DNA from: Dehalococcoidia bacterium
GTDB taxonomy: Bacteria > Chloroflexota > Dehalococcoidia > UBA2247 > RBG-13-53-26
Direction of reading: 5' to 3'
Assembly (NCBI GenBank): GCA_016932645.1
Contig: JAFGCL010000033.1
Location: 1 to 42,986 of the forward strand
DNA: 42,986 bases
Position numbers and translations under genes: made by a program
In this document: in pieces, positions 300-37,762 of the stretch
Layout: the number at the start of each line of letters is the position of its first letter
Numbering within the stretch: position 1 is the first letter of the stretch
The notes under the pieces: model-generated
Databases searched by the model: none
What the model was told of the DNA's origin: nothing
What the model saw: the letters and a program-made list of their open reading frames with translations, nothing else

Positions 300-1193
300 T
301 TATTGTGGAGGCCCGATGGTTGCATGAACGATCTCAGCAAATGGACAGACCTGCCTCTTCGAGTTCTGGCCTTTGAAGCAAAGCTCTGTGAGATTGCTGG
401 CAGTGACGCGCTTCACTTGTGAGAAACCTCTCGCTGCCAGGAAGGTCTCGATCTCCGACCCTTCTATCCCGAACCTGATTGGTTCTCCAAGTCGCTCGCA
501 CCGAGTCTGAAGCGCCTTGGCCCACTTGTCCTTCGACCCGGGATCCACTGCCGACGCATGGAGGTAATCGAAGATGATAGAACTGCCGGGGCTGGAATTC
601 GCCACTACCAATGACAGAGTCCTGTCTACGGCCTCTGCAGTCAGGTAGGGCGTTACCCCTTCCCAGATGAAAAGGGTCTTCAAGTCTCTTCTGTAGCCCG
701 CTGCCAGCAACTTCTCGTCAAGCCTGTCTTTCTCGAAGTCAACTGGGACAAGAGTCACCCAAGTCGGCCATTCCTTAAGCACCGTCTTGAGCCTGGCCGC
801 TTTCGTCTTCTGCGTATTCGGGTGATCGACTTCGAATACCTTGACTTTGCTGAATGCCTTCAGTCTATAGGCCCTGGAGTCAAAACCGGCCCCCAATATT
901 ACGACCTGCTCAACACCGTCTTTGATGCAGGCTTGAGAGTAGTCGTCTATGTACCTGGTCCGGGCAACCCCTTCGGCTCTCGTTCCACCCGGGTCCTTGC
1001 GGACCGACCAGATCCAGAGGCTTCGCTGGAACTTGTTCTTCAGGGAAAGCCGGTACCTGCGCTGTAGATTCTCATCGAGGAACACGACAGCCAGCGGGTC
1101 GTAGCAGACCCTTCTTTCCGGAGTCATGAGCGACTCTACGGCTCTGATACCAGCCTGCTGCACTGCTGTCCTGCTTGCACTGCCTTCTATCAT
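300..1193 (-). CDS. Class I SAM-dependent methyltransferase (leucine carboxyl / mycobacterial O-methyltransferase-like family)
   Basis: 297-aa ORF. It has the VVILGAGFDSRAYR SAM-binding motif and the FIWEGVTPYLT motif typical of the TIGR00027/LCMT family. Confidence 0.8.
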   Translation of the reverse strand: MIEGSASRTAVQQAGIRAVESLMTPERRVCYDPLAVVFLDENLQRRYRLSLKNKFQRSLWIWSVRKDPGGTRAEGVARTRYIDDYSQACIKDGVEQVVILGAGFDSRAYRLKAFSKVKVFEVDHPNTQKTKAARLKTVLKEWPTWVTLVPVDFEKDRLDEKLLAAGYRRDLKTLFIWEGVTPYLTAEAVDRTLSLVVANSSPGSSIIFDYLHASAVDPGSKDKWAKALQTRCERLGEPIRFGIEGSEIETFLAARGFSQVKRVTASNLTELCFKGQNSKRQVCPFAEIVHATIGPPQ

Positions 1194-1407
1194 AAAAGCA
1201 CCTCAGAATCCTTCCGTACGGTACCACTGCGAGACTGGTTCTTCCTGGACTCTGCCCGTCTCAGGTTTGCGCAGGGATAATACAGGCTGGCATCAGGCAC
1301 TGTCAACCGCAGGCATGGTTGGGTAATACTGGTCGGTACAGAGCCCAGTCTAGCAACCGAACGTTTTGCGAGGCCGAAGCAGTAGCGTTGCTTACCACCC
1401 CCTGACG

Positions 1408-1437
1408 TTGTTTTATTCATTGAATTGATAGTATACT
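1408..1437 (+). promoter_or_regulatory. Candidate promoter of the thiC leader
   Basis: TTGTTT (1408-1413), 18-nt spacer, TATACT (1432-1437), just upstream of the TPP aptamer. Confidence 0.35.
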
Positions 1438-1452
1438 GAGACAGAATGATCT

Positions 1453-1545
1453 AGCCGCAGGGGAGCTCAGAGGCTGAGAGCCCGTCAAGTAGCGGGCAAC
1501 CCTTTGAACCTGACCTCGGTAATGCGAGCGTAGGGAGGCGGTTCC
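1453..1545 (+). promoter_or_regulatory. TPP (THI-box) riboswitch
   Basis: Contains GGGGAGC..CTGAGAG..AACCCTTTGAACCTGACCTCGGTAATGCGAGCGTAGGGAGG, a close match to the THI element consensus. It lies directly upstream of thiC. Confidence 0.9.
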
Positions 1546-1549
1546 AGCA

Positions 1550-1589
1550 GCCAAGAACCGTTGACTGAGGCTCTTGGCTTTTTGTTTTT
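1550..1589 (+). terminator. Intrinsic terminator serving as the riboswitch expression platform
   Basis: Stem GCCAAGA (1550-1556) pairs with TCTTGGC (1572-1578), followed by TTTTTGTTTTT, 13 nt before the thiC ATG. Confidence 0.7.
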
Positions 1590-1601
1590 GGAGTAGAGAG
1601 A

Positions 1602-2903
1602 ATGACGCAGTTGCAGATAGCCAGACAAGGAGTGGTGTCGCCACAGATGAAGCTCGTGGCTGAGAAGGAAGGGCTGGACGCCGAGGTCGTGCGCCAGGGA
1701 ATAGCCGACGGCACTATTGTGATCCCTGCAAATCCCGGTCACCGCAATCTGCAGCCCTGCGGCATAGGCAAGGGTCTCTCTACCAAGGTCAACGCCAACG
1801 TGGGTACCTCTTCGGACTTCCCTTCTCTGGAAAACGAACTGGAGAAGGTGCGCGTCGTCATGGAATATAAGTCCGACGCAGTGATGGACCTCAGCACCGG
1901 GGGTGACATCAATAATATCCGGCGGCACATCATCGAATTCTGCCCACTTCCGCTGGGCACCGTGCCCATCTATCAGGCGGCCATTCAGGCGGTCGAAAGG
2001 CGCGGCGCTATCGTCAACATGACTGCCGATGACATCTTCGCTGCCATCGAACAGCAGGCTGAGGACGGCGTGGATTTCATGACTGTGCATTGCGGAGTCA
2101 CGCAGAGATCCATCGAGCACCTTCGGCAGCAGGCACGGCTGACCAACGTGGTGTCTAGGGGTGGCGCCTTCCTGCTGGGCTGGATTCTTCATAACGAGAG
2201 CGAGAACCCGCTTTACGACCGCTACGATCGCCTGCTGGAAATAGCACGGCGATACGATATAACGCTCAGCTTGGGAGATGGCATGCGCCCCGGCAGCCTG
2301 TCTGACGCTACCGACCGTTGTCAGATCCAGGAACTGCTCATTCTCGGGGAACTGGTGGAGCGTGCCTGGAACGCGGGCGTTCAGGTTATGGTCGAAGGGC
2401 CAGGCCACATCCCACTGGACCAGGTAGTCACCAACGTGCAACTCCAGAAGCGTGTCTGCCGGGGTGCCCCGTTCTACGTGCTGGGGCCGCTGGTGACTGA
2501 CGTGGGCGCCGGCTACGACCACATCTCTGCCGCCATAGGTGGCGCGGTGGCCGCTGCAGCCGGTGCTGATTTTCTCTGCTACGTCACACCTTCAGAACAC
2601 CTTTCTTTGCCCACGCCGGAGGAAGTCAAGGAGGGTATCATCGGCGCCAGGATAGCCGCCCACGCAGCAGATATCGTGAAAGGCGTTAAGGGAGCGGCTG
2701 AGTGGGACCGCAGAATGTCACTGGCGCGTCGAAATCTCGACTGGGACGAGCAGATCAGGCTTTCCATGGATCCGGCCAAGGGTCGGCGGCTCCATGACCG
2801 GTTCGCCGGCAAGGCCGGAACTTGCAGCATGTGCGGGCCATACTGCGCTATGGCCCTAGTAGAGAAGTACCTTGGCATATCTCTGGAGAAGTGCCCCCAC
2901 TGA
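1602..2903 (+). CDS. thiC: Phosphomethylpyrimidine synthase ThiC (radical SAM, short form)
   Basis: 433 aa with typical ThiC sequence throughout, including the C-terminal [10 protein letters not shown] cluster motif. A TPP riboswitch lies upstream. Confidence 0.95.
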
Positions 2904-2922
2904 GTCTCACTCCCGATAAGCC

Positions 2923-4158
2923 ATGAAAGCCGGTATCGTCTCCATTGGCACTGAGCTCCTGCTGGGAGAGGTAGTAGACACCAATGCCTCATACATCGCC
3001 TCCCAATTGCCGCTGCTCGGGCTTGAACTTCAGTCAGTCATAGCCGTTCCCGATCGCATGGACAGTCTGGTGGAGGCCTTTCAACAGGCGTGGCAGCGCT
3101 TCGATGTGGTGATTGCCACCGGCGGACTTGGCCCGACCCAGGATGACTTGACCCGCGAGGCCATTGCCCAGTTGCTGGGCGAGGAAATGACTGTTTCCCC
3201 CGAGCTCGAGAGTGACGTCCGAGCCATATTCGCCGCTATGGGACGAGACATGTCGCCAAGCAATATCAAGCAGGCGACGCTAATCCCTTCGGCCCAGGCC
3301 ATCCCGAACCCGCGGGGCACGGCGCCGGGGTGGTGGGTCGAGAAGAATGGAAAGCTCATGGTGGCCATGCCGGGCCCCCCTGCAGAGATGCAGCGCATGT
3401 GGGAGGTAGAGGTGATGCCAAGGCTCCGGGCAAGAATTCCGGGCGATGTGGTTCTGCTGCGAACCCTCAAGTGCTTTGGCCTGTCTGAAGCAGAGGTGGG
3501 AGAGAAGGCTGGCCGAGTGTTTGGCATGGGCAACCCCATCTTGGGCGTGTACGCCAAACCAGATGGCATTCACCTAAGGCTGATGGCCATGGCGTCTGAC
3601 CAGGAGAAGGCAACGGCCCTGATTGCCGAAGCCGAGAACAGGCTGCGCAGCACTCTGACAGACCATCTGTGGGGTACGGATTCTGATACGCTGGAGAACA
3701 CCGTGGGCCAACTCCTGTCCACCAGACACCTCACTCTGGCCACCATGGAATCATGCACTGGAGGACTGCTGGCCAGCACTGTGACCGATGTTCCCGGAAG
3801 CTCCGCCTACTTCAAAGGCGGATTTGTGGCCTACACCAACGATATGAAAGCTTCTCTGGGCGTGGATGCCGGACTCATCAAAGAGCATGGCGCGGTAAGT
3901 CGCGAGGCAGCTGAGGCCATGGCGCAAGCTGCGCGGCGACAGCTCGGGGCGGACATCGGGCTGGCGGTCACAGGCGTAGCCGGCCCAGATACATTGGAGG
4001 GAAAACCTCCTGGTCTGGTCTACATAGGGATCGCTGACGGCAAGAGCGCTCGATCAGTTGAAGGCCGATTCCCACCCCGCAGAGTGGATGTGAAGCGGCG
4101 GGCTGCTGTCTACGCGCTGTTCGTACTCAGGGAGAAACTGATCTCATCACCAAGTTGA
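2923..4158 (+). CDS. cinA: CinA family protein (MoCF-binding domain plus nicotinamide-nucleotide amidohydrolase PncC domain)
   Basis: 411 aa. N-terminus MKAGIVSIGTELLLGEVVDTN, and C-terminal CinA domain TMESCTGGLLAS...VAVTGVAGP. Confidence 0.9.
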   Translation: MKAGIVSIGTELLLGEVVDTNASYIASQLPLLGLELQSVIAVPDRMDSLVEAFQQAWQRFDVVIATGGLGPTQDDLTREAIAQLLGEEMTVSPELESDVRAIFAAMGRDMSPSNIKQATLIPSAQAIPNPRGTAPGWWVEKNGKLMVAMPGPPAEMQRMWEVEVMPRLRARIPGDVVLLRTLKCFGLSEAEVGEKAGRVFGMGNPILGVYAKPDGIHLRLMAMASDQEKATALIAEAENRLRSTLTDHLWGTDSDTLENTVGQLLSTRHLTLATMESCTGGLLASTVTDVPGSSAYFKGGFVAYTNDMKASLGVDAGLIKEHGAVSREAAEAMAQAARRQLGADIGLAVTGVAGPDTLEGKPPGLVYIGIADGKSARSVEGRFPPRRVDVKRRAAVYALFVLREKLISSPS

Positions 4159-4165
4159 CGGCGGG

Positions 4166-5101
4166 CTAACCTTCGGGCGGCAGAAATTCGTCCCAGGTCT
4201 CCCTGTCTCTCCTGGCAGACACCAACCGCAGCAGGATCACAGCACCAACCAAGCCTATCAGTCCGACTATCAACCACAGCCACCAGCGGGATGACTGTTC
4301 CGCAAACCTAGCCGTCACCGTCAGTGGTACATCAACATAAACGGTGACTGACTTCTTCGAGCCGGACAAGTCTCCTTCCCAGTAATCAAACCGGTAGCCC
4401 TTCGCGGCCTTGGCAGTGATGGTCACTTCCTTGCCCACGGCATAGCCGTTGGATGATTCCGGTTCCAGGACGACCGAGCCTCCTATGGTCGGGCTGCAAT
4501 AGACGGCGACGGTGGGGTTAAAAATGGCTACAATCGACCTGTTATCGTTGACGAGAACGGTCCTGGGGTTGTCAGTGCCGGCCAGATCACCCGTCCAGTG
4601 GCTGAAAACGTAGCCCGTCCCAGCCTTGGCGTACACAGATACGTTGTCATTGACGAGATAGCCGCCCGGGGGATGGGCTTCCGAGAACTCTATCGAGCCC
4701 CCACCGCTGGGTTCAATAGCAGCAGCCAAGGAGTAGCGAAGGTCAGACTGCACGAAGTTGGCAGTGATATGGCGATTGTTGTCGGGGTCATCTCCCATTG
4801 CGAAGGTTACCATGGTCTGGCTGGGGTCGGCGATCACATCTACTTCCCCAGTCCAGCCAACAAACACATAGCCGGTCACCGGCGTGGCGGTCAGAGTGAT
4901 GAGCGCAGTGGCGAGATACCTCGTGGCCACTGGAGAGACTGTGACTGTCCCGCCAGCCTCTGGAGTACTGACGACCGTCAGTACTTCGCACGCTCAGGCT
5001 GCGTGCGTTCTGGGTGGGATTGCCACCGGAGCCACCAAGGCGGTGGCTGCCAATAGGATCGCCAGCAGCCAGAAGGGCCGAACAGCAAGCCTGTGCCTCA
5101 C
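4166..5101 (-). CDS. Exported, C-terminally membrane-anchored protein with three InlB-B-like repeats, interrupted by one in-frame TGA (4996-4994). Candidate selenoprotein or pseudogene.
   Basis: GTG 5101 opens a signal peptide (MRHRLAVRPFWLLAILLAATALVAPVAIPP..HAA). The same frame continues past the TGA into repeats with the G[YF]xFxxW[TE]G motif and a WWL-TM-RL anchor. The ORF track reports only 4166..4930, which begins mid-repeat. Confidence 0.6.
4964..4985 (-). other. SECIS-like mRNA hairpin downstream of the in-frame UGA
   Basis: mRNA AGUACUGAC-GGUC-GUCAGUACU forms a perfect 9-bp stem with a GGUC tetraloop. The stem starts 8 nt after the UGA. Confidence 0.45.
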
Positions 5102-5139
5102 CTTGTTCTCTCCTCAAGGGCCGCGGCGCTGCTGCTCCC

Positions 5140-7050
5140 TTAATCTACAGGATATCTCCCGCGTTGAACCACCAAGACCCAGAACAAACGGATGAGGATC
5201 AAGGCGATGATCACCAACACGAGTATGAGTGGTATCAGCCACCAGGAGAACCCTCCCTTGGGTACGCCCACCGCAAACATGGTGCCTGCCAAGTCACTGG
5301 GGGCCGGTTTGCTCTTCAGAGTCAACTTCGCCCAGACGAAGTCGCCATCTTTGTCAACACCCGTCTTGGAACACTTCTTCCACCTTTGTCCGTCCCACCA
5401 GAACAGTCGCAGCGACCCCTCTTTCACCACTGCCACTTCTTCGGCAGTGTAGTACACTACTATCTCGACTTCGTCAATCGCCACGGTGCTGGAGAAAAGA
5501 ACGTCGATCCACCTTCCCTCTTCGTCATCAATATCTTTCTGACCCAGGGTCTTGTATCGAAACTCGCCCACCGGATTCTCAGCGAACTCAGCCACAGAGG
5601 CAAACGCCCTGCCGATCCCCTCTTTCGTCACAACGGTGGAGGTCTCGTTGCGGCTATTGAGGATGAAAGGCCCCGCTTGGGCGGCGACTGTCTTGACGCG
5701 CATCGGCTGCTTCGCCAGCCAAGGGTCAAACAGAATCGTATCTCCCACAGCGGGTCCTTGACCACCGGTATTGGATACATGCGACGGGCCCGTGTCCGTG
5801 CCCCACCAGTTTTCAATGGCACTGACCTTCTCAGTGCTCTGGCTGTACACCTGGGAACCGGCTGCCACAGCAGGATCGGTTCCGGGATCAACCGTTATCG
5901 TGTTGAAGCGAAGCTGATTGCCTGATGCAGTCGAGCTTAGGAAGACGGCAGAGCCTTCGGTCGCACTGTTGCCATGAAGCTTGTTCCCGCTCAGATAGTT
6001 CTCCGATCCATCGATGTACATGCCGATCACATTGTACTTGCACTCGTTCTCCAGAAGGATGTTGCTCGTGCTGTCTTCCGAGACATAGATGCCGTAGTTG
6101 TTGTCGAGGATTACGTTCCCGGAGATTACACAGCCACTGGCGTCCTCGAGCCGTACACCAGCCCCGCCGGTGTCAACGGCCCCCTCGATAGTGAACCCTG
6201 AGAGTGTCACGCAACCGGCCGTTATCTTGAACACATCTTCTGTGGCATATGGCGTCAGAAACGCCCGTACAATCGTCTTGTCAGGCCCTGCCACCGCCTT
6301 GATAGTCACGCTCTTGGCCACGGTCACGTTTTCGTCATACGTGCCCTCGTGTACCGATATCCTCCATCCATCAAACACCGAGTCAACGGCTTCCTGTATC
6401 GTCCCGTAGTCATAGCCTTCGCCTTTGCCAACGCTTGCTTCGCGGACAATGTAGGCGCGGATCAGGAAGTCTCCGGCTGGTCGCTTCATCCCCTCACTGA
6501 CCAGTCCATAGGGAGTCTTCCCATTCCACGACTCACCCGTCCTTTGATGGTCATGGAACACAGTAACTTTGAGACTATCCGCCGCCTCCACAAAGATCCA
6601 GAACTTTGTCGGGACCACAAGATCTCCGACCGGAATCTCATACCATTTCTCTGCCGTGACCTCACAGAGTATCTTTGGTATCAAGAGTTCGTTTGGTGCA
6701 AAACCGCCGGCCTTCGTGTCCATGATGTGGACTACCACCGTACCTTTGCCCCCGCCGGCATAGAAACGAACTTTACTCAGGATTGATGAGGCCACTCCCT
6801 GGGGGAGGGAGAAGAGCACCCCTTGAAAAGTCTGGCATTGCTGGCAACCCGATAGTTGGTGCGTCCACATCTGTCCATACGGGTCGCCATCATCGTACGC
6901 GAGTTCCCCGGTATCGCCAGTCCCCGAACAATCCACAATCTCTGCCACAGCCTGATGTGAATCGAGCAGCAACGGCGCAAGTGAGGATATTATCAGGAGC
7001 ATCGTCAGGACAGAAATGACGGTAGTCTTCAGCATCCTGCTCGACAACAT
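5140..7050 (-). CDS. Surface protein with a right-handed parallel beta-helix (NosD/pectin-lyase-like) domain, a signal peptide and a C-terminal TM anchor
   Basis: 636 aa. It has an N-terminal hydrophobic signal, TIQEAVDSV..G..ISVHEGTYDENVTV plus repeated GN.I..N..GIY beta-helix turns, and a C-terminal SWWLIPLILVLVIIALILIRL anchor. Confidence 0.8.
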   Translation of the reverse strand: MLSSRMLKTTVISVLTMLLIISSLAPLLLDSHQAVAEIVDCSGTGDTGELAYDDGDPYGQMWTHQLSGCQQCQTFQGVLFSLPQGVASSILSKVRFYAGGGKGTVVVHIMDTKAGGFAPNELLIPKILCEVTAEKWYEIPVGDLVVPTKFWIFVEAADSLKVTVFHDHQRTGESWNGKTPYGLVSEGMKRPAGDFLIRAYIVREASVGKGEGYDYGTIQEAVDSVFDGWRISVHEGTYDENVTVAKSVTIKAVAGPDKTIVRAFLTPYATEDVFKITAGCVTLSGFTIEGAVDTGGAGVRLEDASGCVISGNVILDNNYGIYVSEDSTSNILLENECKYNVIGMYIDGSENYLSGNKLHGNSATEGSAVFLSSTASGNQLRFNTITVDPGTDPAVAAGSQVYSQSTEKVSAIENWWGTDTGPSHVSNTGGQGPAVGDTILFDPWLAKQPMRVKTVAAQAGPFILNSRNETSTVVTKEGIGRAFASVAEFAENPVGEFRYKTLGQKDIDDEEGRWIDVLFSSTVAIDEVEIVVYYTAEEVAVVKEGSLRLFWWDGQRWKKCSKTGVDKDGDFVWAKLTLKSKPAPSDLAGTMFAVGVPKGGFSWWLIPLILVLVIIALILIRLFWVLVVQRGRYPVD

Positions 7051-7057
7051 GCGAAAT

Positions 7058-7067
7058 CCCCCCCCCC
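7058..7067 (-). repeat. G10 homopolymer (C10 on the plus strand) forming the SD region of the beta-helix surface protein gene
   Basis: mRNA reads caaGGGGGGGGGGauuucgcAUG. The tract ends 7 nt before the start codon at 7050. Confidence 0.9.
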
Positions 7068-7297
7068 TTGTAGGTCGGATTCCTCCATGCGGAACGACCC
7101 GTCATGGCTGCCACAATATACCACTCAATGCACAGAAGCACAAGTCATTTCCGGTCATTAGAGATGTGATCAGCCCTTGCCACCGATGTTGCCATGATGT
7201 CAGCAGTAGTGCTGCCCGTGTACTGCCACCGGTAGGCGGGTTTGTAGGAACGTGGCTGGTTTCGATTGTGAACCGAGCCGTTGCGTGCGGGTGACAA

Positions 7298-7326
7298 TAT
7301 TCCCCCATCGCAGAGGGGGGTCACTC
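7298..7326. repeat. Partial REP-like G/C hairpin (TATTCCCCC-loop-GGGGGG) at the 3' end of the OST gene
   Basis: TATTCCCCCatcgcagaGGGGGGtcactc shares its 5' arm and architecture with the elements at 25419 and 30496. It overlaps the OST stop codon. Confidence 0.4.
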
Positions 7327-9177
7327 CAATGCCAGGATAACTACGGGGGGTTTTTCGATATCGCTAGCGGGGTATACCCGTCTCAGACCGCCACCGAACT
7401 CGGTTTGGCCACCTAAACTCCGGGCGTACAGCGAGTCCCTTAGCTCAGGAGGGATACTGATTTGATCACCGTAAGCCTTCTCAAGAGCCTCCCAACTTAT
7501 CACCGGTAGGATCTTGATCTCGATGTCTGAGAAGATAAGGTAGTGCGCCCCGTACTTCTGCATGATCTCAACTGCCTCAGCGTCGTCTGTCGCGCAGTAG
7601 ACGCGGGCGACATCCCTGTCGGTGCTTGCCCAATGCACGCCATTATCCACCACAGGTACCCGGTGTCCCAGGTCAAGTATCCAGTATCCGTAGTCCCACC
7701 AGCTCATTACCTTGATATCGCTGTCCTCTGGAGTATTCTCTCGCAACCATGTCAAGGCTTCTTCCCATTCAGGAGTGACGGCCATTATCCTGGAGAACGA
7801 CCCCACGTGCCGGGATGTCAATGCCGAACCAAGGATGGTGCCAGCTATCAGGAGTACCGCAAGCATCGCTCTCAGATACCTGAGAACACTGCGCGAGTCA
7901 GCGATCCCGGCTGCCACCTCTCTCAGCGAGAAGCGGCGAGCACCTCCTAGGTCAAGCATAGCTCCCAACCCGATGCCACACAAAACGCAGAAAGCAGGAG
8001 CGGCAAAGTTGAAAAGCCTTCGGGCGAACAAACCACCGGCAAAAAGTACCACACACCAGCTCAGCCACAAGACGTCCGGTGGCCGCCGTCTTCTGATCGT
8101 GACATATATGCCCACCAGGAGAGGCACCAACAGAAACTGCCACGTGACGATGTCGCTGGGGCCAATCCCCCGCAGCTCCCCGATGTACTGGGCCCCCTCA
8201 GCGGGGTGGAAGGCTTCGAGCCAGGCGTTGTATATCGCTTCGTACCCCGGCTGGAAGATGCCGACCACGGCACTGACAGCCAGAGCTAACACGAGAGGCC
8301 TATAGCTCGACTTTTCGATGGATGGTATCATGCCCTTAGCGCCTTGTTTCACCAGTGCAATCGGCAGGTTCAGAGGGTCGGTCTCGGCGTTGAAGGCGGA
8401 CACCAACCGTGTCCACAAGCTGGCCAATATCTCACCAACCACATAAGCCATTAAGATAGCCAATAGGATCAGAGATCCCAAGAAGCCCCATTCGACATAC
8501 AGCAACGCCTCAAACAACAGCACGGACGCCCCACGTACTACCCAGCCGAGGTCCAGTCCGCTCCTTTTCAGGTGGAGATCCTTCATGAGATAGAAGGCGC
8601 AAACCCCCATGATTACCAGCAGCCAACTGAGGCCATCACGGTCAATATAGCCCGCAGCGCCGAAGAACACGGTCAGAACAGCAGCAGCAAAAGCAAATGC
8701 CGACAGGTGAGCAACGACGCGCCCGTACATCTTCGAAACCACTAGCCAAAGAACAATGATGGTAACCACTGCTATGATCGGCGGGAGTACCTTGGCCACA
8801 AATGCCACGGCATCTTGGGATGCCACTCCGCTCACGAAAGCAATCACCCTGGCCAGTAGACCCACAGGGTATGCCAATCCACTGTGCATCCAGTACGGGA
8901 GAACCACATTAAACTGGGTTGGGTACTGGAACTTGTCACCCGAGGCCACCAAGTCGGCCATAAAATGGAAAAAGTAGGAGTCAGTACTGATGATGTAGTA
9001 GTGGTCCGTCTCCAGAAGATGCAGGCAGCGATAGGCGAAGGCCAGTCCGCATATTAGGGCCAGCAGAACCCAATGAAACCACCGACGGGAAGTGCATGCC
9101 AGGAACGCCGACCAGAAGCCGGATGCGGTCCCGGTGGACCCTTCCGTTCTCTGCCCCTTCTCAGTTTGGTCAGTCAT
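7321..9177 (-). CDS. STT3/AglB/PglB-family oligosaccharyltransferase (GT-C fold, N-glycosylation)
   Basis: 618 aa. It has a polytopic N-terminal membrane domain, then ALTWLRENTPEDSDIKVMSWWDYGYWILDLGHRVPVVDNG, which carries the hallmark WWDYG motif. Confidence 0.8.
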   Translation of the reverse strand: MTDQTEKGQRTEGSTGTASGFWSAFLACTSRRWFHWVLLALICGLAFAYRCLHLLETDHYYIISTDSYFFHFMADLVASGDKFQYPTQFNVVLPYWMHSGLAYPVGLLARVIAFVSGVASQDAVAFVAKVLPPIIAVVTIIVLWLVVSKMYGRVVAHLSAFAFAAAVLTVFFGAAGYIDRDGLSWLLVIMGVCAFYLMKDLHLKRSGLDLGWVVRGASVLLFEALLYVEWGFLGSLILLAILMAYVVGEILASLWTRLVSAFNAETDPLNLPIALVKQGAKGMIPSIEKSSYRPLVLALAVSAVVGIFQPGYEAIYNAWLEAFHPAEGAQYIGELRGIGPSDIVTWQFLLVPLLVGIYVTIRRRRPPDVLWLSWCVVLFAGGLFARRLFNFAAPAFCVLCGIGLGAMLDLGGARRFSLREVAAGIADSRSVLRYLRAMLAVLLIAGTILGSALTSRHVGSFSRIMAVTPEWEEALTWLRENTPEDSDIKVMSWWDYGYWILDLGHRVPVVDNGVHWASTDRDVARVYCATDDAEAVEIMQKYGAHYLIFSDIEIKILPVISWEALEKAYGDQISIPPELRDSLYARSLGGQTEFGGGLRRVYPASDIEKPPVVILALE

Positions 9178-9407
9178 GTTGCAGAGTGAACCCGGTCACC
9201 ACGTCCTGCTGCTCGCGAACCTCGCTCCGCAATCTCAGTTACTGAGAGCATTCTACTGGAGTCAAGCTCGCAAAAAACCTCTGGCACCAAAGCCCGCCCT
9301 GGACTCTGACGTGCCATTGTGGACCCCCCTGATGCAGGTCAAATGAGTTGTGTTTCGCTGGCACGTTATGTTATAGTCTCGACTCAGTTGTGTCAAGGAG
9401 GTCCATC

Positions 9408-9698
9408 ATGACCATGAAACCCGGCTGTGGCTGCTTCCTGCTGCTTCTCGCTATCGCCAACCTTGTGCTTCTGATCTCTTCGATAGCCGCCGCTGTCAAA
9501 GGCAATCTGACGGTGCTCACGGGTATTGCCATGACAGTGCTTTTTGCTGCAAATGTTGCCGCTGCTGGAATGCTCGGGTTGGCTGCAATGCGAGGTGTGT
9601 CGTTCGGTCGGAAGTCTGCGGCGCAGGATGCGGATGAGTCAGCCGTGGATGAGTCGACGTCCGTTACCGAAGAGGGCACAGACGACAGTGCGGACTAG
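9408..9698 (+). CDS. Small membrane protein (2 TM) with an acidic C-terminal tail
   Basis: AAGGAGG lies 6 nt before ATG 9408. Sequence: MTMKPGCGCFLLLLAIANLVLLISS..., two hydrophobic helices, then a D/E/S-rich tail. Confidence 0.55.
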   Translation: MTMKPGCGCFLLLLAIANLVLLISSIAAAVKGNLTVLTGIAMTVLFAANVAAAGMLGLAAMRGVSFGRKSAAQDADESAVDESTSVTEEGTDDSAD

Positions 9699-9876
9699 CC
9701 AGGAGAGTTGGCGGACATGGATGGCACGCAGTCTATGAAAGACTCACGCTGGACTCCACGAAGGCTCCTCGGCAGAACGGCAACGAGCGTGTCGTCTGCC
9801 TGTTCCTTCAGATTCGCACCTCCTGAGATCATTCGCCCCGTCAGTACCAGGTTGATTCCAAATCCCCTTCAACCAC

Positions 9877-9905
9877 TTGACAACGCTCCCAACCTGTGGT
9901 ATTAC
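9877..9905 (+). promoter_or_regulatory. Candidate extended -10 promoter giving a leader of about 220 nt for the first small paralog
   Basis: TTGACA (9877-9882), 17-nt spacer ending in TGg, TATTAC (9900-9905). Confidence 0.4.
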
Positions 9906-10131
9906 TATGACTGCTTCCAAGCAGCAGAGTTGGAACCGAGTAGCAGAGTTTATCGCGCAGTAGATGTGGTGGACACATCTATAGCGATGAAGAGTCTTCG
10001 GTAGGATGAAAGGAGGTGTGGCCTAGGAACGACTGCGAGACAGGTTCAGTCGGTTCAGAGTTCAGTCACAAGTGTACGCGAGTTTTGAACTAAGATAACG
10101 GCGCAAAGTAAGAAAGGGGGGTGACTAACAA

Positions 10132-10389
10132 ATGACACCATTTATCTCGACAATTATTGCCAGAGTACTTGCAATCACTGACTACTTCTTGGCGCAGTGG
10201 GTAGACGTAGCTGCAGTTTCCAACGCTTCACCGAATGGCTGCTGGGAATTCGACGTTCAGAACGCCACCCTTAATGCCTGCGGCCAGGAATTCATCGCAA
10301 ACCTGACCGATGTCGTCGAGGGCGTCATTGCTCTCGTCCCGAGCCTTCTGGGCGGCCTTTTCGCATTCGGCACTCCCGAAGCCGTGTAG
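10132..10389 (+). CDS. Small sequon-rich protein, paralog 1 (unknown family)
   Basis: Strong SD GAAAGGGGGGTGA before the ATG. 85 aa with an N-terminal amphipathic helix ending in AQWV, then NAS, NAT and NLT sequons. A terminator follows. Confidence 0.65.
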   Translation: MTPFISTIIARVLAITDYFLAQWVDVAAVSNASPNGCWEFDVQNATLNACGQEFIANLTDVVEGVIALVPSLLGGLFAFGTPEAV

Positions 10390-10466
10390 TAGTAGTAGTA
10401 ACGGTCCGAGGAGAAGCCCCGTTAGGCAGGTGCCCGATTTCATCCTACTAGGGGACTCAGAATTCT

Positions 10467-10503
10467 AGAAGGGGAGCTTTACGAAGCTCCCCTTCTCATT
10501 TTG
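10467..10503 (+). terminator. Intrinsic terminator after paralog 1
   Basis: GAAGGGGAGCTT-tacg-AAGCTCCCCTTC forms a 12-bp stem, followed by TCATTTT. Confidence 0.85.
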
Positions 10504-11608
10504 GCGGGCCCCGCATTTCCTGGCTTCATGCAGTGAATGTTCACACAACGGCATATCCCCTAGAGGAGAAGCGTTATCCGTCTTACGTTCCGTCATTGCC
10601 TCGATTCTCCGTGTCTTGACCAGCAAGAAGCTACTCGACCACGCGGACCCTGATGGATGAGGGCATCATCCCAACCTCCAGCGTCCATGCCGCTGCTCTG
10701 CGTAAACGGGAGGTCTAAAGTCAAACATCTGTTGCTGGTCGGCAAATGCCATACCGGTATAGTAGACTCGCGGGGGTCGGACCCAAAATAGTGGCAGGGG
10801 TTCCACAACTCCCGCGGCTGCAGAGAAGCAGCGGCATGTCGCACGTCCCGGCTGGAGTTCTCCTCGACAAGCCTCCATTAGAGCAACATGAATAGAATGC
10901 TGCTATGAGTCGCTCCGTCGGTCGGCAGAACCGAGCGCACTTCCGGCTCTGCAGCGCGCCAAACCGGACTATCCCCGAAATCCTCATACAGGGGCGCCTA
11001 TCAGCATGGACCAATGCCATCGGTCACGCACACCTCATCGAGTGGCTCCACATGCTTGCAGGGCAACACACTCCATGACTGACAGTCCAAAGAACCAACG
11101 TTCTCGCGCATATCTTAGAGGCAATGCAGGCAAAGCCCGAGTCACCTGTAGAAGGGACGAGTGGCACTGAGATAATCGACAATATCATAGATCGCTGACA
11201 AATAGGCTTGACTATGAGGGTCAGGCATGTTAGATTGCGAAGTGAATTCAACATCAACCCAGAGAGGTAGAGCCTAAAGAGTCAGATGCAGCACTGTCTT
11301 GGGGAGACCCGTGGAGGTTGCAGAGAACCCACGGATTTGGTCTGTTCGGGTGACCAAAAGTCTCTTCAAGGCCAAGAGGGAGCACAGGCATCCGGCCGGA
11401 TGTCGCCAAGAGCAGAACTGCCGACCCGCGTGCAGAGGAGAGAGCGGGAAGGGCAGTGGAACCATGATTGGACACCACGTCCTTTCTCTGACCGAAGCCT
11501 TAACTGTTTTCTAAGCATTCTGTAATGGAGGCTTAAGGTTGCCTTGGTAGACTGGAGGAGCTTGGTAGAGGGGCCACCGCCGACAGCGGAGAATGCTTGA
11601 GGTAGATG

Positions 11609-11842
11609 ATGGACAACTTTGGGGTCGTTGTCGCACGTATCGTAGCTGAACTGACAATGCTAACTGAGGCCACATTGGCCAAGTGGGTCAACATCACCTC
11701 GGTTGATGGCAACATAACCAACATCACATTGACACCACTTGGTAACTCCTTCGCCGATGCGTGGAGTAAGTTCATCGTATCGTACGCTTGGGCAATGGAT
11801 CAGATGCTGCGCACCCTCTGGGGTACCACCTCTGGAGGATAA
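11609..11842 (+). CDS. Small sequon-rich protein, paralog 2
   Basis: GAGG lies 6 nt before the second ATG. Sequence MDNFGVVVARIVAELTMLTEATLAKWVNITSVDGNITNITL aligns with paralogs 1 and 3 and carries three NIT sequons. Confidence 0.6.
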   Translation: MDNFGVVVARIVAELTMLTEATLAKWVNITSVDGNITNITLTPLGNSFADAWSKFIVSYAWAMDQMLRTLWGTTSGG

Positions 11843-11862
11843 GTCAGGGAAAGGCAGACCCG

Positions 11863-12087
11863 GTGACCATATACGACGCAATAGTCAGCATGATGGCAGA
11901 AGCCTTAGCGTTGGGCAACGCAGTGCTGGCACATTGGGTCAGCATGCCGGAAAACGCCACTGGCCCACTCGATCCCAACATTACTCTCACAGAGACCGGT
12001 ACTGACCTGGTGCAGTACTTGCAGTCGTCGGCTGTACAAGCAGGCGACATCGTTTGTGTGGTATTGGATGCCCTCTTCTCACTGTAG
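11863..12087 (+). CDS. Small sequon-rich protein, paralog 3 (start moved to the GTG that aligns with paralog 2)
   Basis: GGGAAAGG lies upstream of GTG 11863. Sequence VTIYDAIVSMMAEALALGNAVLAHWVSMPENATGPLDPNITLTETG aligns residue-for-residue with paralog 2. Confidence 0.55.
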   Translation: MTIYDAIVSMMAEALALGNAVLAHWVSMPENATGPLDPNITLTETGTDLVQYLQSSAVQAGDIVCVVLDALFSL

Positions 12088-12179
12088 GGCATGCCATAGG
12101 CTTCCCGTGATGGACACGCAAGTTTGATCGCAGAAGGAGGACTGACAGGCTCGACAAACCAAAGTTCTTTGATGCGATC

Positions 12180-12899
12180 ATGAGGACCATGCGAGATCAT
12201 CTGATGGCAAAGCATGAAGAAAAGAGAACCCTTGGATCCAGAAGATGCGTTGCCCTTCTTCTGGTCGTTCTCCTTGTCATCTCCACGACCCTGCTGGTTG
12301 CCCCGACAAGAGCAGTGGCGGAACCTGCCACTATCACCCTCAATGGATGGGGCTGGTGCGTTGCCTACAGGGAGATTGGGAACGTTAGTCTGGTTCTTGA
12401 TGGGAGTACCATACCAAGAGAAAGCACAGACAACGTACAGGATCTGTATCTGACGGGTACACTGACGTTTAACCTCGATGATAGGACCGACGAGTTCGAG
12501 TTGGAGTTGAGAGGAACCAGGATAAGATCTCTTTTCTTCCTGAAGCAGGTGTCAGGTGGGGACATCCCGCTCATAGCCGAGTTCGAAGGAACATGGTTGA
12601 GCGAGACAGACTATGTAGCCTGCGAGGGGCGCATAGCGGTAACCGCCCCTAACCACGTAGCCAAGCCGTACTTCTTTGTACTCCGTACGGAAGATGCCGA
12701 GATGCCTTCACGGTTGACCGGCGACTGGGTGGCAAACGTGGATTTCATGGTTGGGAAGCTGACATCAGCTTTTGACTCCATAGCGGATAGGCTCGCAACC
12801 GGGGGATTGGTGATTAAGGACAACCTGGGCGACTTGCTTACCAACATAGCCGTCATTGTCAGGGAAGTGAGAAACTTGGGAATACCCTATTTTGCCTGA
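12180..12899 (+). CDS. Secreted hypothetical protein
   Basis: 239 aa with signal peptide RRCVALLLVVLLVISTTLLVAPTRAVA-EP. No recognisable domain. The start may instead be ATG 12204. Confidence 0.6.
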   Translation: MRTMRDHLMAKHEEKRTLGSRRCVALLLVVLLVISTTLLVAPTRAVAEPATITLNGWGWCVAYREIGNVSLVLDGSTIPRESTDNVQDLYLTGTLTFNLDDRTDEFELELRGTRIRSLFFLKQVSGGDIPLIAEFEGTWLSETDYVACEGRIAVTAPNHVAKPYFFVLRTEDAEMPSRLTGDWVANVDFMVGKLTSAFDSIADRLATGGLVIKDNLGDLLTNIAVIVREVRNLGIPYFA

Positions 12900-18628: not shown

Positions 18629-19495
18629 TCACAACCCGGCAGCGTCAATTATATCCGATGTCCTCTTCTCCTGGCCAATCGCTATGATGTGGACCCCCTG
18701 ACAGAGACCCTTCACCCCGGTGATAGTCCTGACAGCGATCTCCACGCCCTTTGCCGCCTTATCTGAGGCCTTGTCCATCTCATCAATGAGGTTCTCGGGA
18801 ACGCGTATTCCAGCCGCCTTCTCGTTCATGTAGCGCCCCATCGCCGCCGAGCGCAACACCACTATCCCGGCCAGGACGGGCACCTTCAGGTGCCGCACCA
18901 TAGACATGAAGTCAGCGAACTTCCTGGCATCATAGATCGCCTGAGTCTGGAAGAACTGCGCCCCGGCTTCCACCTTCTTCTCCATCTTCATGATCTGCGG
19001 CTCGATGAAATCAGCCTCGGGACTGACGCAAGCGCCAACGAAGAAGCGGGGCGCTCCATTCAGTTCCTTTCCGGCGAGATCATGTCCGTTCTCCAGCTCG
19101 CGAGCCGTCTCGATCAGTGAGACCGAGTCCAGGTCAAACACTGGCTTCGCTTGGGGATGGTCGCCCAAGGTGACATAATCCCCGGTCAGGCAGAGGACAT
19201 TCTCGATCCCCAGCGCGTAGGCACTGAGAAGATCCGACTGGAGAGCGATACGGTTCCGGTCGCGGCAGGTAATCTGAAACACGGGCTCCATGCCCCATTG
19301 GTTCAGTAGACAGCAGCCAGCCAGTGAACCCAGCCGCATCACCGAGCTCTGCTGATCAGTAACGTTCACCGCATCGACCTTGCCGCGCACCCGCTCAGCG
19401 CTGCGTTTCATCTCTGTGACGTCGACTCCCTTCGGGGGGCCCACCTCGCAAGTAATCACGAATCTTCCGGCGGCAAGCTTCTCTCTTAGATTCAC
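18629..19495 (-). CDS. metF: Methylenetetrahydrofolate reductase MetF (acetogen/anaerobe type)
   Basis: 288 aa with FVITCEVGPPKG...VNVTDQQ...QITCRDRNR. Its GTG start overlaps the metV TGA (GTGA). Confidence 0.85.
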   Translation of the reverse strand: MNLREKLAAGRFVITCEVGPPKGVDVTEMKRSAERVRGKVDAVNVTDQQSSVMRLGSLAGCCLLNQWGMEPVFQITCRDRNRIALQSDLLSAYALGIENVLCLTGDYVTLGDHPQAKPVFDLDSVSLIETARELENGHDLAGKELNGAPRFFVGACVSPEADFIEPQIMKMEKKVEAGAQFFQTQAIYDARKFADFMSMVRHLKVPVLAGIVVLRSAAMGRYMNEKAAGIRVPENLIDEMDKASDKAAKGVEIAVRTITGVKGLCQGVHIIAIGQEKRTSDIIDAAGL

Positions 19496-20157
19496 TTCAG
19501 ATCACCGTCCTTGCCGTCAAGGAGGTAGACGCCAGGCTGGGTGCTGGCGCTGAAGTTCCTAAGAGAGCGGCGCTTTCTCAGATTGTCCAGCTTCCCCTGC
19601 TGGCTCAGCCGCTCGTAGATGACTTCCCACGCGCAGTCTCTGGCGGACGACACTTCGCACTTGCCATTCTTTGCCCCACCGCACGGGCCATTGAGCAGAC
19701 CCTTGGGGCAGGCAGTGATCGGGCAGATTCCCCCCGTCCACCCCAAGACGCATTCCCCACACTGCACACAGACCTCAGAGAACACCCCGGGCGACATCTC
19801 CTGCCCCATGAACAGCGTGTCCAGAGCGGGATACACGGGTTTGTCGGTGTAGAGAGCCAGGGTCTGCACACCATAGGCGCAGGCCATCACCAGGATGCAG
19901 TCGGCCTCGTCGATCGCCTTAACGTTCTCCGACACTGCCTCACGATCCTGAGCGTCGCAAACGGTGGGGATCACGACCGAACCGGTGATCGTCTTGCCGA
20001 GGTCCACCAGACGTCTCGCCATCTCCAGCACTTCATCCTTGCCCCCTGTGTGGCACATCGTGGCACACGTGCCACAGCCAACCAGAAAGACACTGGACTC
20101 CTTCTCCAGCAGTCTCTCGATCTCCGCCAACCCCTTCTGTTTGGTAATCGCCTTCAA
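19492..20157 (-). CDS. metV: MetV, MTHFR-associated zinc/Fe-S protein (MTHFR_C domain)
   Basis: 221 aa with the Cys-rich VCVQCGECVLGWTGGICPITACPKGLLNGPCGG segment typical of MetV. Confidence 0.75.
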   Translation of the reverse strand: MKAITKQKGLAEIERLLEKESSVFLVGCGTCATMCHTGGKDEVLEMARRLVDLGKTITGSVVIPTVCDAQDREAVSENVKAIDEADCILVMACAYGVQTLALYTDKPVYPALDTLFMGQEMSPGVFSEVCVQCGECVLGWTGGICPITACPKGLLNGPCGGAKNGKCEVSSARDCAWEVIYERLSQQGKLDNLRKRRSLRNFSASTQPGVYLLDGKDGDLK

Positions 20158-20182
20158 ACCGAAACCGCCTCGCTCTCCATTG

Positions 20183-21412
20183 CTAGGAAGAAATGTGAGC
20201 CTCGTATTCGTGACGGAAGTACCGCAGACTGTCCATCACTGGATAGGGAGCGGCCTGCCCCAGCCCGCACGACGAGGTCAGCATCATGGCCGCGGACAGA
20301 TCCTCCAAAGCCTTCAAATCCTTTCTCCGTCCCTTTCCGTCGACTATCCTGGCCAGAGTCTCTGCCATCGACTGCGTCCCCTCGCGGCACGGGGCGCACT
20401 TGCCACAAGACTCCTCGGCAAAGAACTCCATCGTCTGCCGCATGATATCCACCACGTCTCTGCTCTTGTCAAAGACGATGACGGGCCCGGCGCCCAGCAC
20501 ACTCTCGTACGAGAGCGCAACATCCATCTTGTCGGCAGGCACAATCCTGCCCGACGCACCGCCGACCTGAACCATCTTGACATCTCCAGCCGAGGCAAGC
20601 CCTTCCACCAACTCCCTCAGCGAACTACCCATCTCCAATTCGTACACCCCAGGGCGCTCAACGTCGCCACAGACTGAGAACACCTTCGTTCCCTTGCTCT
20701 CTTCGGTACCCATCCCGCAAAACCGATTCGCTCCGTTGGCCACAACCCACGGTATGTTCATCAGGGTCTCGACGTTGTTGATCACTGTCGGAAAGCCCAG
20801 CAGCCCTTGCGACGGCGGAAATGGGGGTCTGGCCCGCGGTTCGCCCCTACGCCCTTCTAATGATTCCATCAGCGCCGTCTCTTCGCCGCACACATATCCG
20901 CCGCTGCCCAGCCGCAATTCGATACCAAACCTATGTCCGCCGATACCAAGAAACCCCTCCTTCTCTGCTTCAGCGATCGCTCCGATCAGAAAGGGTGCGA
21001 GATGAGCGTACTCCGAGCGCAAATACAGGTACGCCTTGTTGGCCCCGACAGCATACCCCGCGATGGCAATGCCTTCTATCAACGTGAACGGATCCTTTTC
21101 CAGAATGTACCTGTCCTTGAAGGCTCCGACCTCACCCTCTGACGCATTGCAGATGACGTACTTCATCTGGCTGGGTGACTGCGCTGTCTGCTCCCACTTC
21201 AGCCCCGTGGGGAAACCACCGCCCCCCCTGCCCCGCAGCCCCGATCGCCTCACCTCACCCACCACCTGCGCCGGAGTCATGCCGGACTGCACACGGCGCA
21301 GGGCCTTGAATCCACCCCGTGCCAGGTACGATTTGACATCTTGCGGGTCAATCACCCCGCAGTTCCTCAGCACCAGCAACTTCTGTGGCAATGAACTTAC
21401 CTCGTCTCCCAA
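20183..21412 (-). CDS. nuoF: NuoF/HoxF-like NAD(H)-binding FMN Fe-S flavoprotein
   Basis: 409 aa with the GRGGGGFPTGLKW FMN site and the ESCGKCAPCREG [4Fe-4S] motif. Confidence 0.9.
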   Translation of the reverse strand: MGDEVSSLPQKLLVLRNCGVIDPQDVKSYLARGGFKALRRVQSGMTPAQVVGEVRRSGLRGRGGGGFPTGLKWEQTAQSPSQMKYVICNASEGEVGAFKDRYILEKDPFTLIEGIAIAGYAVGANKAYLYLRSEYAHLAPFLIGAIAEAEKEGFLGIGGHRFGIELRLGSGGYVCGEETALMESLEGRRGEPRARPPFPPSQGLLGFPTVINNVETLMNIPWVVANGANRFCGMGTEESKGTKVFSVCGDVERPGVYELEMGSSLRELVEGLASAGDVKMVQVGGASGRIVPADKMDVALSYESVLGAGPVIVFDKSRDVVDIMRQTMEFFAEESCGKCAPCREGTQSMAETLARIVDGKGRRKDLKALEDLSAAMMLTSSCGLGQAAPYPVMDSLRYFRHEYEAHISS

Positions 21413-21413
21413 T

Positions 21414-21848
21414 CTACCGGTATCCCGCCAGTATCTCCGTCACTCTCTCGGCAGTGAGATCGCCGAAGACCTCGTCATCTATCATCATAGCCGGGGCCCT
21501 GTCACAAGCGCCAATGCAGTTCACCAGCTCCAGCGAGAACAGGCCATCCTGGCTGGTCTGCCCCGGTCCAATACCCAGTTCCCTTTCTACCGCGTGAATG
21601 ATCGACCCGTTGTGCTTGAGATAGCACGGCACGCTCTTGCACACCCTGATGACGTGTTTCCCGTGGGGCCTCAGCGGCAGACCCCGGTAGAAAGTCGCCG
21701 CACTGTAGACATCCACCACCGGAAGACCCAGTGCATCCGCCAAACCGATCAGAGCGTGCTCCGGAATATAGCCGTACACTTCGCGGGTGCGCTCCAGGAG
21801 AAGCAACAGGCTGCTATCCAGCCTAGCGTCGTTGGTGCTTGAAGCCAT
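21414..21848 (-). CDS. nuoE: NuoE/HoxE-like thioredoxin-fold [2Fe-2S] ferredoxin
   Basis: 144 aa with CKSVPC (CX4C) and CIGACDRAPAMMID (CX3C). Confidence 0.9.
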   Translation of the reverse strand: MASSTNDARLDSSLLLLLERTREVYGYIPEHALIGLADALGLPVVDVYSAATFYRGLPLRPHGKHVIRVCKSVPCYLKHNGSIIHAVERELGIGPGQTSQDGLFSLELVNCIGACDRAPAMMIDDEVFGDLTAERVTEILAGYR

Positions 21849-21857
21849 ATAGCGGTA

Positions 21858-32378: not shown

Positions 32379-32475
32379 ATCTGCTATGAGTTCACCTTGA
32401 TCAAGCCCGATTCGACTGGCCTCTCTTTTGTTCCTTTGTCTTCGCTCTTGCAGACTGCAGGAAGCACAGCACCCT

Positions 32476-32628
32476 TCAGTTCGAAGCCTTGAGATACTTG
32501 TCAGGATTCTCCAGGAATGCCTTCTTGCAGCCCGGGGCGCAGAAGTAGTAGGTCTTGCCCTTGTAGTCGGCTGTGGCAGCGGCCTTCTTCTCATCCACAT
32601 CCATATTGCACACGGGGTCTTTGGCCAT
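32476..32628 (-). CDS. YHS/TRASH-domain small metal-binding protein
   Basis: MAKDPVCNMDVDEKKAAATADYKGKTYYFCAPGCKKAFLENPDKYL with SD GAGGGGGGTGA upstream of ATG 32628. Confidence 0.75.
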   Translation of the reverse strand: MAKDPVCNMDVDEKKAAATADYKGKTYYFCAPGCKKAFLENPDKYLKASN

Positions 32629-34641: not shown

Positions 34642-34644
34642 AGC

Positions 34645-35055: not shown

Positions 35056-35070
35056 TTCAAGTCCCCTTTG

Positions 35071-36932: not shown

Positions 36933-36946
36933 TCTAAATATCTTCT

Positions 36947-37726: not shown

Positions 37727-37762
37727 GCAACGACTCTCCTTCTACTCTTCCATTTCTTCCAT

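Follow-up and report, generated by a model that had tools for sequence, protein, structure and literature searches.

The analyzed stretch of DNA (the window) is the whole 42,986-nt contig JAFGCL010000033.1 of a Dehalococcoidia bacterium, and on its minus strand it carries a gene for an exported B-repeat surface protein whose reading frame is interrupted by a single in-frame UGA codon. Comparison of this gene with its relatives makes it very probable that the UGA encodes selenocysteine (Sec, U in motifs) and that the gene belongs to a new selenoprotein family of Chloroflexota. The evidence comprises the exclusive use of UGA at this position, an RNA hairpin with a GGUC loop downstream of it, and the presence of Sec machinery on the contig of an orthologue.

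An earlier interpretation of this DNA made from the letters alone (the sequence-only reading) had proposed that GTG 5101 opens a signal peptide, that the frame stays open beyond the only TGA at 4996-4994, and that the segment after the TGA is the first of three repeats, and all three points were borne out. In the signal peptide segment MRHRLAVRPFWLLAILLAATALVAPVAIPPRTHAA, a basic N-region precedes a hydrophobic core, and the end is AxA-like. The frame after the TGA comprises 275 codons, starts with ACEVLTVVSTPEAGG, and ends at TAG 4168-4166. It is read on as ACEVLTVVSTPE and takes in three Pfam Flg_new_2 repeats and a membrane helix. The read-through protein matches PF18998 in three stretches with 125.5 bits (cut-off, 23.6; E value, 7.8e-37), the first strand of domain 1 overlaps the hairpin, and the SRWWLW motif of the C-terminal anchor is nearly invariant in the family. 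The own terminator of the family genes is TAG in 19 of 23 members.

TGA is an ordinary stop elsewhere in the window, as had been stated before, and it ends 12 of the 26 annotated genes, including thiC and cinA, which indicates that the genetic code is standard. Reassignment of UGA is ruled out by this count and by the occurrence of one UGA per family gene at a fixed site. Further recoded genes were sought among 88 pairs of open reading frames (ORFs) in the window that are split by a single TGA, and a recognizable coding continuation was found only in the B-repeat gene.

Conservation of the UGA codon and the downstream hairpin

The read-through product, with Cys replacing the stop, was used as the query against 5.8 billion proteins and gave 78 matches. 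All of the 57 close homologues (42 to 72% identity) begin at or after the motif LTVVS because gene callers truncated every member at its TGA, and none of them covers the signal peptide. The orthologue at locus L085 (related loci carry L numbers here), for example, is listed in GenBank as a hypothetical protein of 272 aa (MBM4445247.1). Every database copy is therefore truncated at the UGA, which leaves a whole clade of surface proteins in Chloroflexota misannotated.

The DNA of the relatives was obtained by exact look-up and by one scan each of metagenome and genome collections, and the gene layout was compared among the relatives with enough upstream sequence, which represent about 25 distinct sequences. 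In the frame of LTVVS, these relatives have, in this order, a start codon with a purine-rich ribosome binding site, a signal peptide of 30 to 40 residues, a single stop, and a tail of 4 to 6 residues. The purine-rich motifs upstream of the starts of orthologues are similar in kind to the GAGGAG of the window. The leader segments have a basic N-region and an AxA-like end, and their maximal Kyte-Doolittle means over 12 residues range from 2.4 to 3.8. The in-frame stop is TGA in all of the approximately 25 distinct homologues and never TAA or TAG; no orthologue has another sense codon in its place, and none lacks the residue. The signal peptide segment is likewise kept in the homologues, and leader and body share the frame in every one of them.

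The layout was found in three-repeat orthologues (L001 to L012, L015 to L018, L020, and L083 to L085) and in tandem paralogues, two in L086 (1130-2700) and two in L165 (3608-5733), each with its own signal peptide, TGA, and hairpin. Five-repeat forms are L162/L163 (GCA_040961035.1) and L165b, and a two-repeat subfamily at 26 to 30% identity comprises L028, L035, L043, and L045. The number of B-repeats varies (2, 3, or 5) between constant ends, the Sec module at the N terminus and the anchor at the C terminus. The named carrier genomes are all metagenome-assembled genomes (MAGs) of Chloroflexota or Dehalococcoidia. Carriers of the family include VGOM01, JBFOMV01 (GCA_040961035.1), JAUCPZ01, DAIQQD01, and JAFNFZ01.

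The hairpin downstream of the UGA, AGUACUGAC-GGUC-GUCAGUACU, encodes V-L-T-V-V-S-T. The perfect 9-bp stem described in the sequence-only reading is present in the window, but only the inner 6 bp and the GGUC loop are conserved in relatives and the outer 3 bp are not. In the window, the conserved core stem begins 11 nt after the UGA and the GGUC loop lies about 17 to 18 nt after it. The folding energy is -12.0 kcal/mol for the 9-bp hairpin of the window and -8.1 kcal/mol for the common core. The 14-nt core CTGACGGTCGTCAG, consisting of stem and GGUC loop, occurs once in the window, versus 0.06 copies expected by chance. Within the gene there are only three perfect hairpins of at least 6 bp: the one with the GGUC loop, another whose loop contains the UGA, and a third in the signal peptide region. 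As claimed previously, the equivalent positions of repeats 2 and 3 have no comparable hairpin.

An ungapped alignment of the hairpin from 25 distinct sequences showed that the inner six stem pairs are paired in all 25 and that the GGUC loop is invariant. The covariation that the sequence-only reading had made a point to check is present, with compensatory double changes at two stem pairs (G-C in 23 sequences versus A-U in 2, and A-U in 24 versus G-C in 1). The core CTGACGGTCGTCAG occurs in all members except the variant L084, which reads CTGGCGGTCGCCAG; in L084, an A-U pair is changed to G-C by two substitutions that also alter two residues (LTVVS to LAVAS; T to A and V to A). The spacing from UGA to loop in the family is 17, 20, or 23 nt, i.e., it changes in whole-codon steps. 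Eighteen orthologues were also aligned by codons, and in 45 columns of this alignment the conserved residue is one that can be encoded in four or more ways. Four of these columns lie in the hairpin and are restricted to one codon each (Leu CTG, Thr ACG, Val GTC, and Val GTC); in each of the other 41, two to five codons are in use (Fisher P = 6.7e-6). Freezing of synonymous sites is confined to the hairpin codons, which indicates that the palindrome is not explained by amino acid conservation and codon bias. As judged from these alignments, the hairpin is under selection as RNA.

Could the TGA be a lesion, introduced by nonsense mutation of a pseudogene or by faulty sequencing or assembly, with the palindrome as a by-product of the LTVVS codons? 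The window alone is compatible with this explanation, and the folding z-scores are modest. However, about 25 distinct sequences, obtained from samples and assemblies that are independent of one another, have the same TGA, which excludes a lesion or sequencing error. Abundant synonymous variation on both sides of the TGA indicates purifying selection, and frozen synonymous sites together with compensatory changes are found in the hairpin only. The probability left to a lesion is negligible. The sequence-only reading had named local recoding or a lesion, and only recoding is supported.

It is very improbable that the locus consists of two cistrons, i.e., a hydrophobic leader peptide of 35 codons and a B-repeat protein started independently or by reinitiation near LTVVS, with the hairpin regulating their coupling. 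Gene callers place GTG, ATG, or TTG starts directly before LTVVS in some homologues, and genes of 34 aa are called upstream in L002 and L162, as this explanation would have it. However, the codon before LTVVS in the window and most homologues is GTA, AAG, GAA, GAG, or CAG, none of which is a start codon, and the next start lies inside domain 1; many members have no start codon from the TGA to the middle of that domain. Leader and body share one frame throughout, versus one case in three expected for independent ORFs. In addition, the residues from the UGA to LTVVS are conserved, Cys included, and the body on its own would have no signal peptide, although its topology with a C-terminal helix and a basic tail requires export.

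The hairpin was compared with published descriptions of SECIS elements (Sec insertion sequences). Bacterial SECIS (bSECIS) elements have a loop of 3 to 9 nt, a stem of 4 to 16 bp, a distance of 16 to 37 nt from UGA to loop, and a folding energy of -7.5 kcal/mol or lower, with G in the first two nucleotides of the loop and, as a rule, G or U next (PMC13188914). Another study gives a SECIS stem of 6 to 8 bp and a conserved G about 20 nt from the UGA (PMC4605307). The family hairpins lie within all of the ranges of PMC13188914, with the 4-nt loop GGUC, stems of 6 to 9 bp, spacings of 17, 20, or 23 nt, and energies of -8.1 to -12.0 kcal/mol. A covariance model of the hairpin matches only family members in the 248 kb of collected sequence.

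The likeness to the E. coli fdhF element noted in the sequence-only reading is confirmed. In fdhF, the GGTC loop lies 18 nt after the TGA (verified in 5,419 genomes), and both systems have an in-frame UGA, a hairpin inside the coding sequence, and an identical GGUC loop. The fdhF SECIS stem has a bulged U. In contrast to fdhF, the family has a plain 6-bp helix as its conserved stem, encodes a protein unrelated to FdhA, and falls into three spacing classes. The identity of the loop makes a reporter fusion in E. coli realistic. The element is carved from sequence that codes for a normal part of a repeat domain, its first beta-strand (LTV...), which shows how a new Sec site can arise.

The perfect hairpin with the UGA in its loop may or may not be part of the element. 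Hairpins of this kind, differing in sequence, occur in L002, L004, and L162 and are lacking in L001, L003, L006, L009, L011, and L084. It could be a chance product of the flanking GCN Ala codons or a modulator of the access of release factor 2 (RF2) or SelB.

Sec machinery in the lineage and weighing of the Sec assignment

In the Chloroflexi MAG contig VGOM01000026.1 (L085/L016), ARAGORN identified a tRNA-Sec with the anticodon UCA 2.1 kb upstream of the orthologue, and this tRNA matches Rfam RF01852 with 77.8 bits (cut-off, 47). An FdhA exported by twin-arginine translocation (Tat), with TGA at the canonical HQARI-U-HSPTV site, is encoded 9 kb upstream of the orthologue. The ten bacteria richest in selenoproteins in BSepDB include Dehalococcoidia MAGs, which have 49 and 46 genes (PMC13326102).

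The cluster in L085, which also occurs in L016 and L166, comprises Tat-FdhA, FdhB-like and cytochrome b subunits, FdhE, TatA/B/C, and tRNA-Sec. In the ORF finder output, the FdhA of L085 is represented by two parts of 207 and 873 aa, split at its TGA. A cyclic di-GMP-II riboswitch (RF01786) lies at 11480-11562 of L085, downstream of the family gene. On the 713-kb contig of L164 (ERZ25039462), frameshifts occur within ArsP_1 (2478-3559) and within the family gene (around 9823-10000); they are most likely long-read assembly errors, and the gene calls there are unreliable. The flanking ArsP_1 and thioredoxin_3 genes of L164 were considered as known selenoproteins and rejected, the former being frameshifted by the assembly and the latter having Cys.

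The UGA might also be recoded to an amino acid other than Sec, with the hairpin promoting its decoding by a suppressor tRNA or a near-cognate one (for Trp, Cys, Arg, or Gly). Taken by themselves, the hairpin and the conserved in-frame UGA prove only continued translation, and no Cys homologue links the position to thiol or selenol chemistry. However, the loop sequence, stem length, and spacing of the hairpin are those of the SelB type, no stop other than UGA is used, and a tRNA-Sec and a canonical Sec-containing FdhA are encoded on the contig of an orthologue. A neighboring Cys is also nearly always present, as in UxxC and CxxU selenoproteins. To our knowledge, hairpin-stimulated readthrough of this kind is not an established bacterial mechanism, and we consider it improbable here.

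Several observations weigh against the assignment of Sec. None of the 78 matches among the 5.8 billion proteins covers the signal peptide and has Cys at the Sec column, and most accepted selenoprotein families have Cys-containing homologues at the Sec position. The Sec machinery was seen on the contig of an orthologue; of the window's own genome, the analysis covered the window, which is the whole contig and contains no tRNA. Within about 15 to 20 kb around the tRNA-Sec of L085 and L166, and in the rest of the collected sequence, no selA, selB, or selD was found. The SECIS element proposed in the sequence-only reading agrees with the published bSECIS ranges but not with any SECIS model in Rfam, as neither a gathering search of the whole window nor a permissive search of 4900-5060 matched SECIS or another relevant family, the riboswitch before thiC being the sole match. 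Folding of the 71-nt region of the window has z = -3.2; in several orthologues, folding energies of 50-nt segments are unexceptional compared with those of shuffled sequences, and the argument therefore rests on conservation and not on thermodynamics. Finally, L001 and L165a have no Cys within 5 residues of Sec.

Predicted protein, proposed Sec site, and relation to known selenoproteins

An AlphaFold2 model built on 16 orthologues (mean predicted local distance difference test score, 89.4) consists of three small beta domains and a C-terminal helix (residues 237 to 268). A search of the PDB for similar folds returned generic multidomain stalks or adhesins with low TM-scores, and no enzyme was among the matches. 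The predicted signal peptidase sites (AxA-like: HAA, ADA, TSA, ANA, AFA, TYA, and others) lie 0 to 3 residues before Sec, which would place Sec at or beside the mature N terminus, in agreement with the position of the U-A-C motif given in the sequence-only reading. A lipoprotein with Sec at position +1 was considered and rejected, as the residues before Sec (HAA, DAQ, TSA, SAV, REQ, DAG, and SGD) form no lipobox; at position -1, the pattern [LVI][ASTVI][GAS] does not admit Q, V, or D.

The tail after Sec usually contains Cys. The motif is U-A-C in the window, L003, L006, L009, and L011, U-R-C in L018 and L162, and U-[APS]-S-C-Y-D in most members; it is U-C in L007, U-D-K-C in L084, and U-A-A-P-C in L165b, and the distant subfamily has C-[AG]-U. 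Members without a downstream tail Cys (the L001 type with U-G-E-K-L, L165a, L028, L043, and L045) have a Cys in domain 1 instead, within its first loop (PPLC-like), and L035, with U-G-C, is missing the loop Cys. The complementary placement of tail Cys and loop Cys in these sequences suggests a Sec-Cys couple. In addition, a Cys in V-Y-C-S-P at the start of repeat 3 (around 4496-4498; alignment column 175) is kept in 14 of 16 orthologues and could be a third redox or ligand residue beside Sec and the tail Cys. N-x-S/T sequons in the protein are partly conserved.

We infer the following on how Sec would be inserted, where the protein would be cleaved, how it would be oriented, and what it would do. 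Translation would start at GTG 5101, the GGUC hairpin would recruit SelB with Sec-tRNA(Sec) at UGA 4996-4994, Sec would be inserted in place of termination, and translation would go on to the TAG at 4166; the known SelB recoding mechanism would in this way serve a B-repeat gene. The product would consist of three small B-repeat domains of the beta-sandwich type between a cleavable signal peptide and a C-terminal membrane helix. Once the protein is exported and cleaved by signal peptidase, Sec would lie at or within 3 residues of the mature N terminus, and a stalk with its anchor in the cytoplasmic membrane would carry it at the membrane-distal tip. The Sec/Cys tip would most likely be a selenenylsulfide redox site or a soft-metal-binding site, and it would probably act with a CxxC-containing NosD-like beta-helix partner, encoded next to it, in a glycosylated envelope.

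Cataloged selenoproteins that are exported or have metal or redox roles include DsbA-like and DsbG-like proteins (UxxC), the SO_0444 Cu/Zn efflux protein (UxC), and MbdU (CU) (PMC13188914), and the same class in Table 1 of that catalog includes thiol:disulfide interchange proteins and SaoB/SaoX. Like these proteins, the family has Sec near Cys in an extracytoplasmic setting, and a redox or soft-metal role is plausible. Unlike them, it has no thioredoxin fold or transporter domain, and its motif, with a spacing of 0 to 3 residues and variable order, lies on an N-terminal tail before adhesin-like B-repeats. The family shares the PF18998 repeats with Flg_new_2/InlB B-repeat (TIGR02543) proteins, and its modeled beta domains, arranged like beads on a string, are similar to stalks and adhesins in structure. 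Distant exported homologues (L025, L026, and L087) are lipoproteins with a lipobox Cys or ordinary secreted proteins without Sec, whereas the family has a signal peptide, Sec, a short Cys tail, and a C-terminal anchor of WW plus a membrane helix.

The statement of the sequence-only reading that the protein falls outside the known selenoprotein families holds. A 2026 catalog of 119 prokaryotic selenoprotein families has no entry for PF18998, PF09479, or TIGR02543 (PMC13188914), and in NCBIfam release 20 only the generic TIGR02543 repeat was matched and no selenoprotein model. A full-text literature search, which included selenocysteine with the B-repeat names and whose coverage of the literature is not exhaustive, found no earlier description. 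The recoding mechanism itself is one that is already known; unusual features of the family, as deduced from its sequences, would be an exported nonenzymatic scaffold, Sec at the mature N terminus, and an obligate Sec. Homology-based finders would miss the family because the protein collection holds no Cys-form homologue. The family is a concrete example of what is missed by finders that require Cys homologues, a limitation stated in the deep-Sep study (PMC12013277).

The NosD-like neighbor and other features of the window

The coordinates of the gene, its RNA elements, and its neighbors are given in Table 1.

Table 1. Coordinates of the candidate selenoprotein gene and associated features (window positions unless another locus is named)
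Feature	Coordinates	Strand	Basis or remark
Shine-Dalgarno-like GAGGAG	5110..5115	-	Sequence; 8 nt 5' of the GTG start
Signal peptide segment MRHRLAVRPFWLLAILLAATALVAPVAIPPRTHAA, 35 codons	4997..5101	-	From GTG start 5101-5099
In-frame UGA, proposed Sec codon, residue 36	4994..4996	-	TGA in every homologue examined
UGA-in-loop hairpin, perfect 7 bp, CGCACGC-AGCCUGA-GCGUGCG	4987..5007	-	Membership of the element uncertain
SECIS-like hairpin AGUACUGAC-GGUC-GUCAGUACU, perfect 9 bp	4964..4985	-	8 nt after the UGA
Conserved hairpin core, 6-bp stem plus GGUC loop	stem 4982-4977/4972-4967; loop 4976-4973	-	Comparison with relatives
Flg_new_2 (divergent InlB B-repeat) domain 1	4748..4978	-	Pfam PF18998, read-through residues 42-118; AlphaFold2 model
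Flg_new_2 domains 2 and 3, approximate limits	4295..4738	-	Three Pfam stretches and model strands
C-terminal membrane anchor WWLWLIVGLIGLVGAVILLRLV, then basic tail	4220..4285	-	Model helix 237-268
True stop codon TAG	4166..4168	-	Sequence
NosD-like beta-helix membrane protein gene	5140..7050	-	Pfam and NCBIfam; 38 nt upstream of the selenoprotein gene
AglB/STT3-type oligosaccharyltransferase	7321-9177	-	Best NCBIfam match archaeosortase-A-associated oligosaccharyltransferase, below cut-off
L085 cluster (positions in L085)	330-3596, 5006-5932, 6985-7755, 7767-7863

The NosD-like gene is directly upstream of the family gene in 18 related loci, down to 28 to 37% identity. Its protein has an invariant CxxC near the N terminus (residues 69 and 72) and three further Cys that are invariant or nearly so. 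The C-terminal anchor of the NosD-like protein, 'WWLIP plus membrane helix plus RLFWVL', resembles the 'RWWLW plus membrane helix' of the selenoprotein, and the WW plus membrane helix common to both may be a shared sorting or anchoring signal. The NosD-like protein is a likely functional partner of the selenoprotein.

The AglB-type oligosaccharyltransferase gene adjoins the NosD-like gene in the window, L001, L084, and L162. In the window, three paralogous ORFs of about 80 aa that are rich in N-x-S/T sequons lie at 10132-10389, 11606-11842, and 11788-12087 on the plus strand; homologues of two of them occur in L162 and of one in L084. No ORF of at least 150 aa was found at 9177-12180. AglB and the sequon-rich ORFs suggest an archaeal-style N-glycosylation and envelope locus. 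Dehalococcoidia have an unusual, wall-less envelope.

A broader proposal combines these features. The family would be the first selenoprotein family on a noncatalytic adhesin-like stalk, with an obligate Sec, lacking any Cys form, at about the first residue of the mature, surface-exposed protein; its selenol, together with a mobile partner Cys, would form a reversible Se-S link or a shared soft-metal site with the invariant CxxC of the NosD-like protein in an archaeal-style, AglB-glycosylated envelope. This proposal is tentative, and we regard it as rather unlikely in its entirety. If it is true, the family would represent a new kind of extracytoplasmic selenium biochemistry and not another thioredoxin-fold oxidoreductase.

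Among the other features of the window, a thiamine pyrophosphate (TPP) riboswitch (RF00059, 68.1 bits) at 1449-1554 on the plus strand precedes thiC (1602-2903), as it does in L084 and L162. Consecutive minus-strand genes at 18629-22640 encode MetF (methylenetetrahydrofolate reductase), a MetV-like protein (DUF5981), a NuoF-like flavoprotein, and a NuoG-N-terminal-like 2Fe-2S/4Fe-4S protein, and this run looks like an electron-bifurcating-type methylenetetrahydrofolate reductase module. FdhD (31569-32600, minus strand) has 343 aa, and its Pfam domain starts at residue 105, which leaves an N-terminal extension. Downstream of FdhD, the minus-strand genes at 32749-38728 form a sulfur-handling run and encode a NifS-like class V aminotransferase, HcyBio (PF01837), a hexapeptide transferase, Thi4, and a PALP enzyme.

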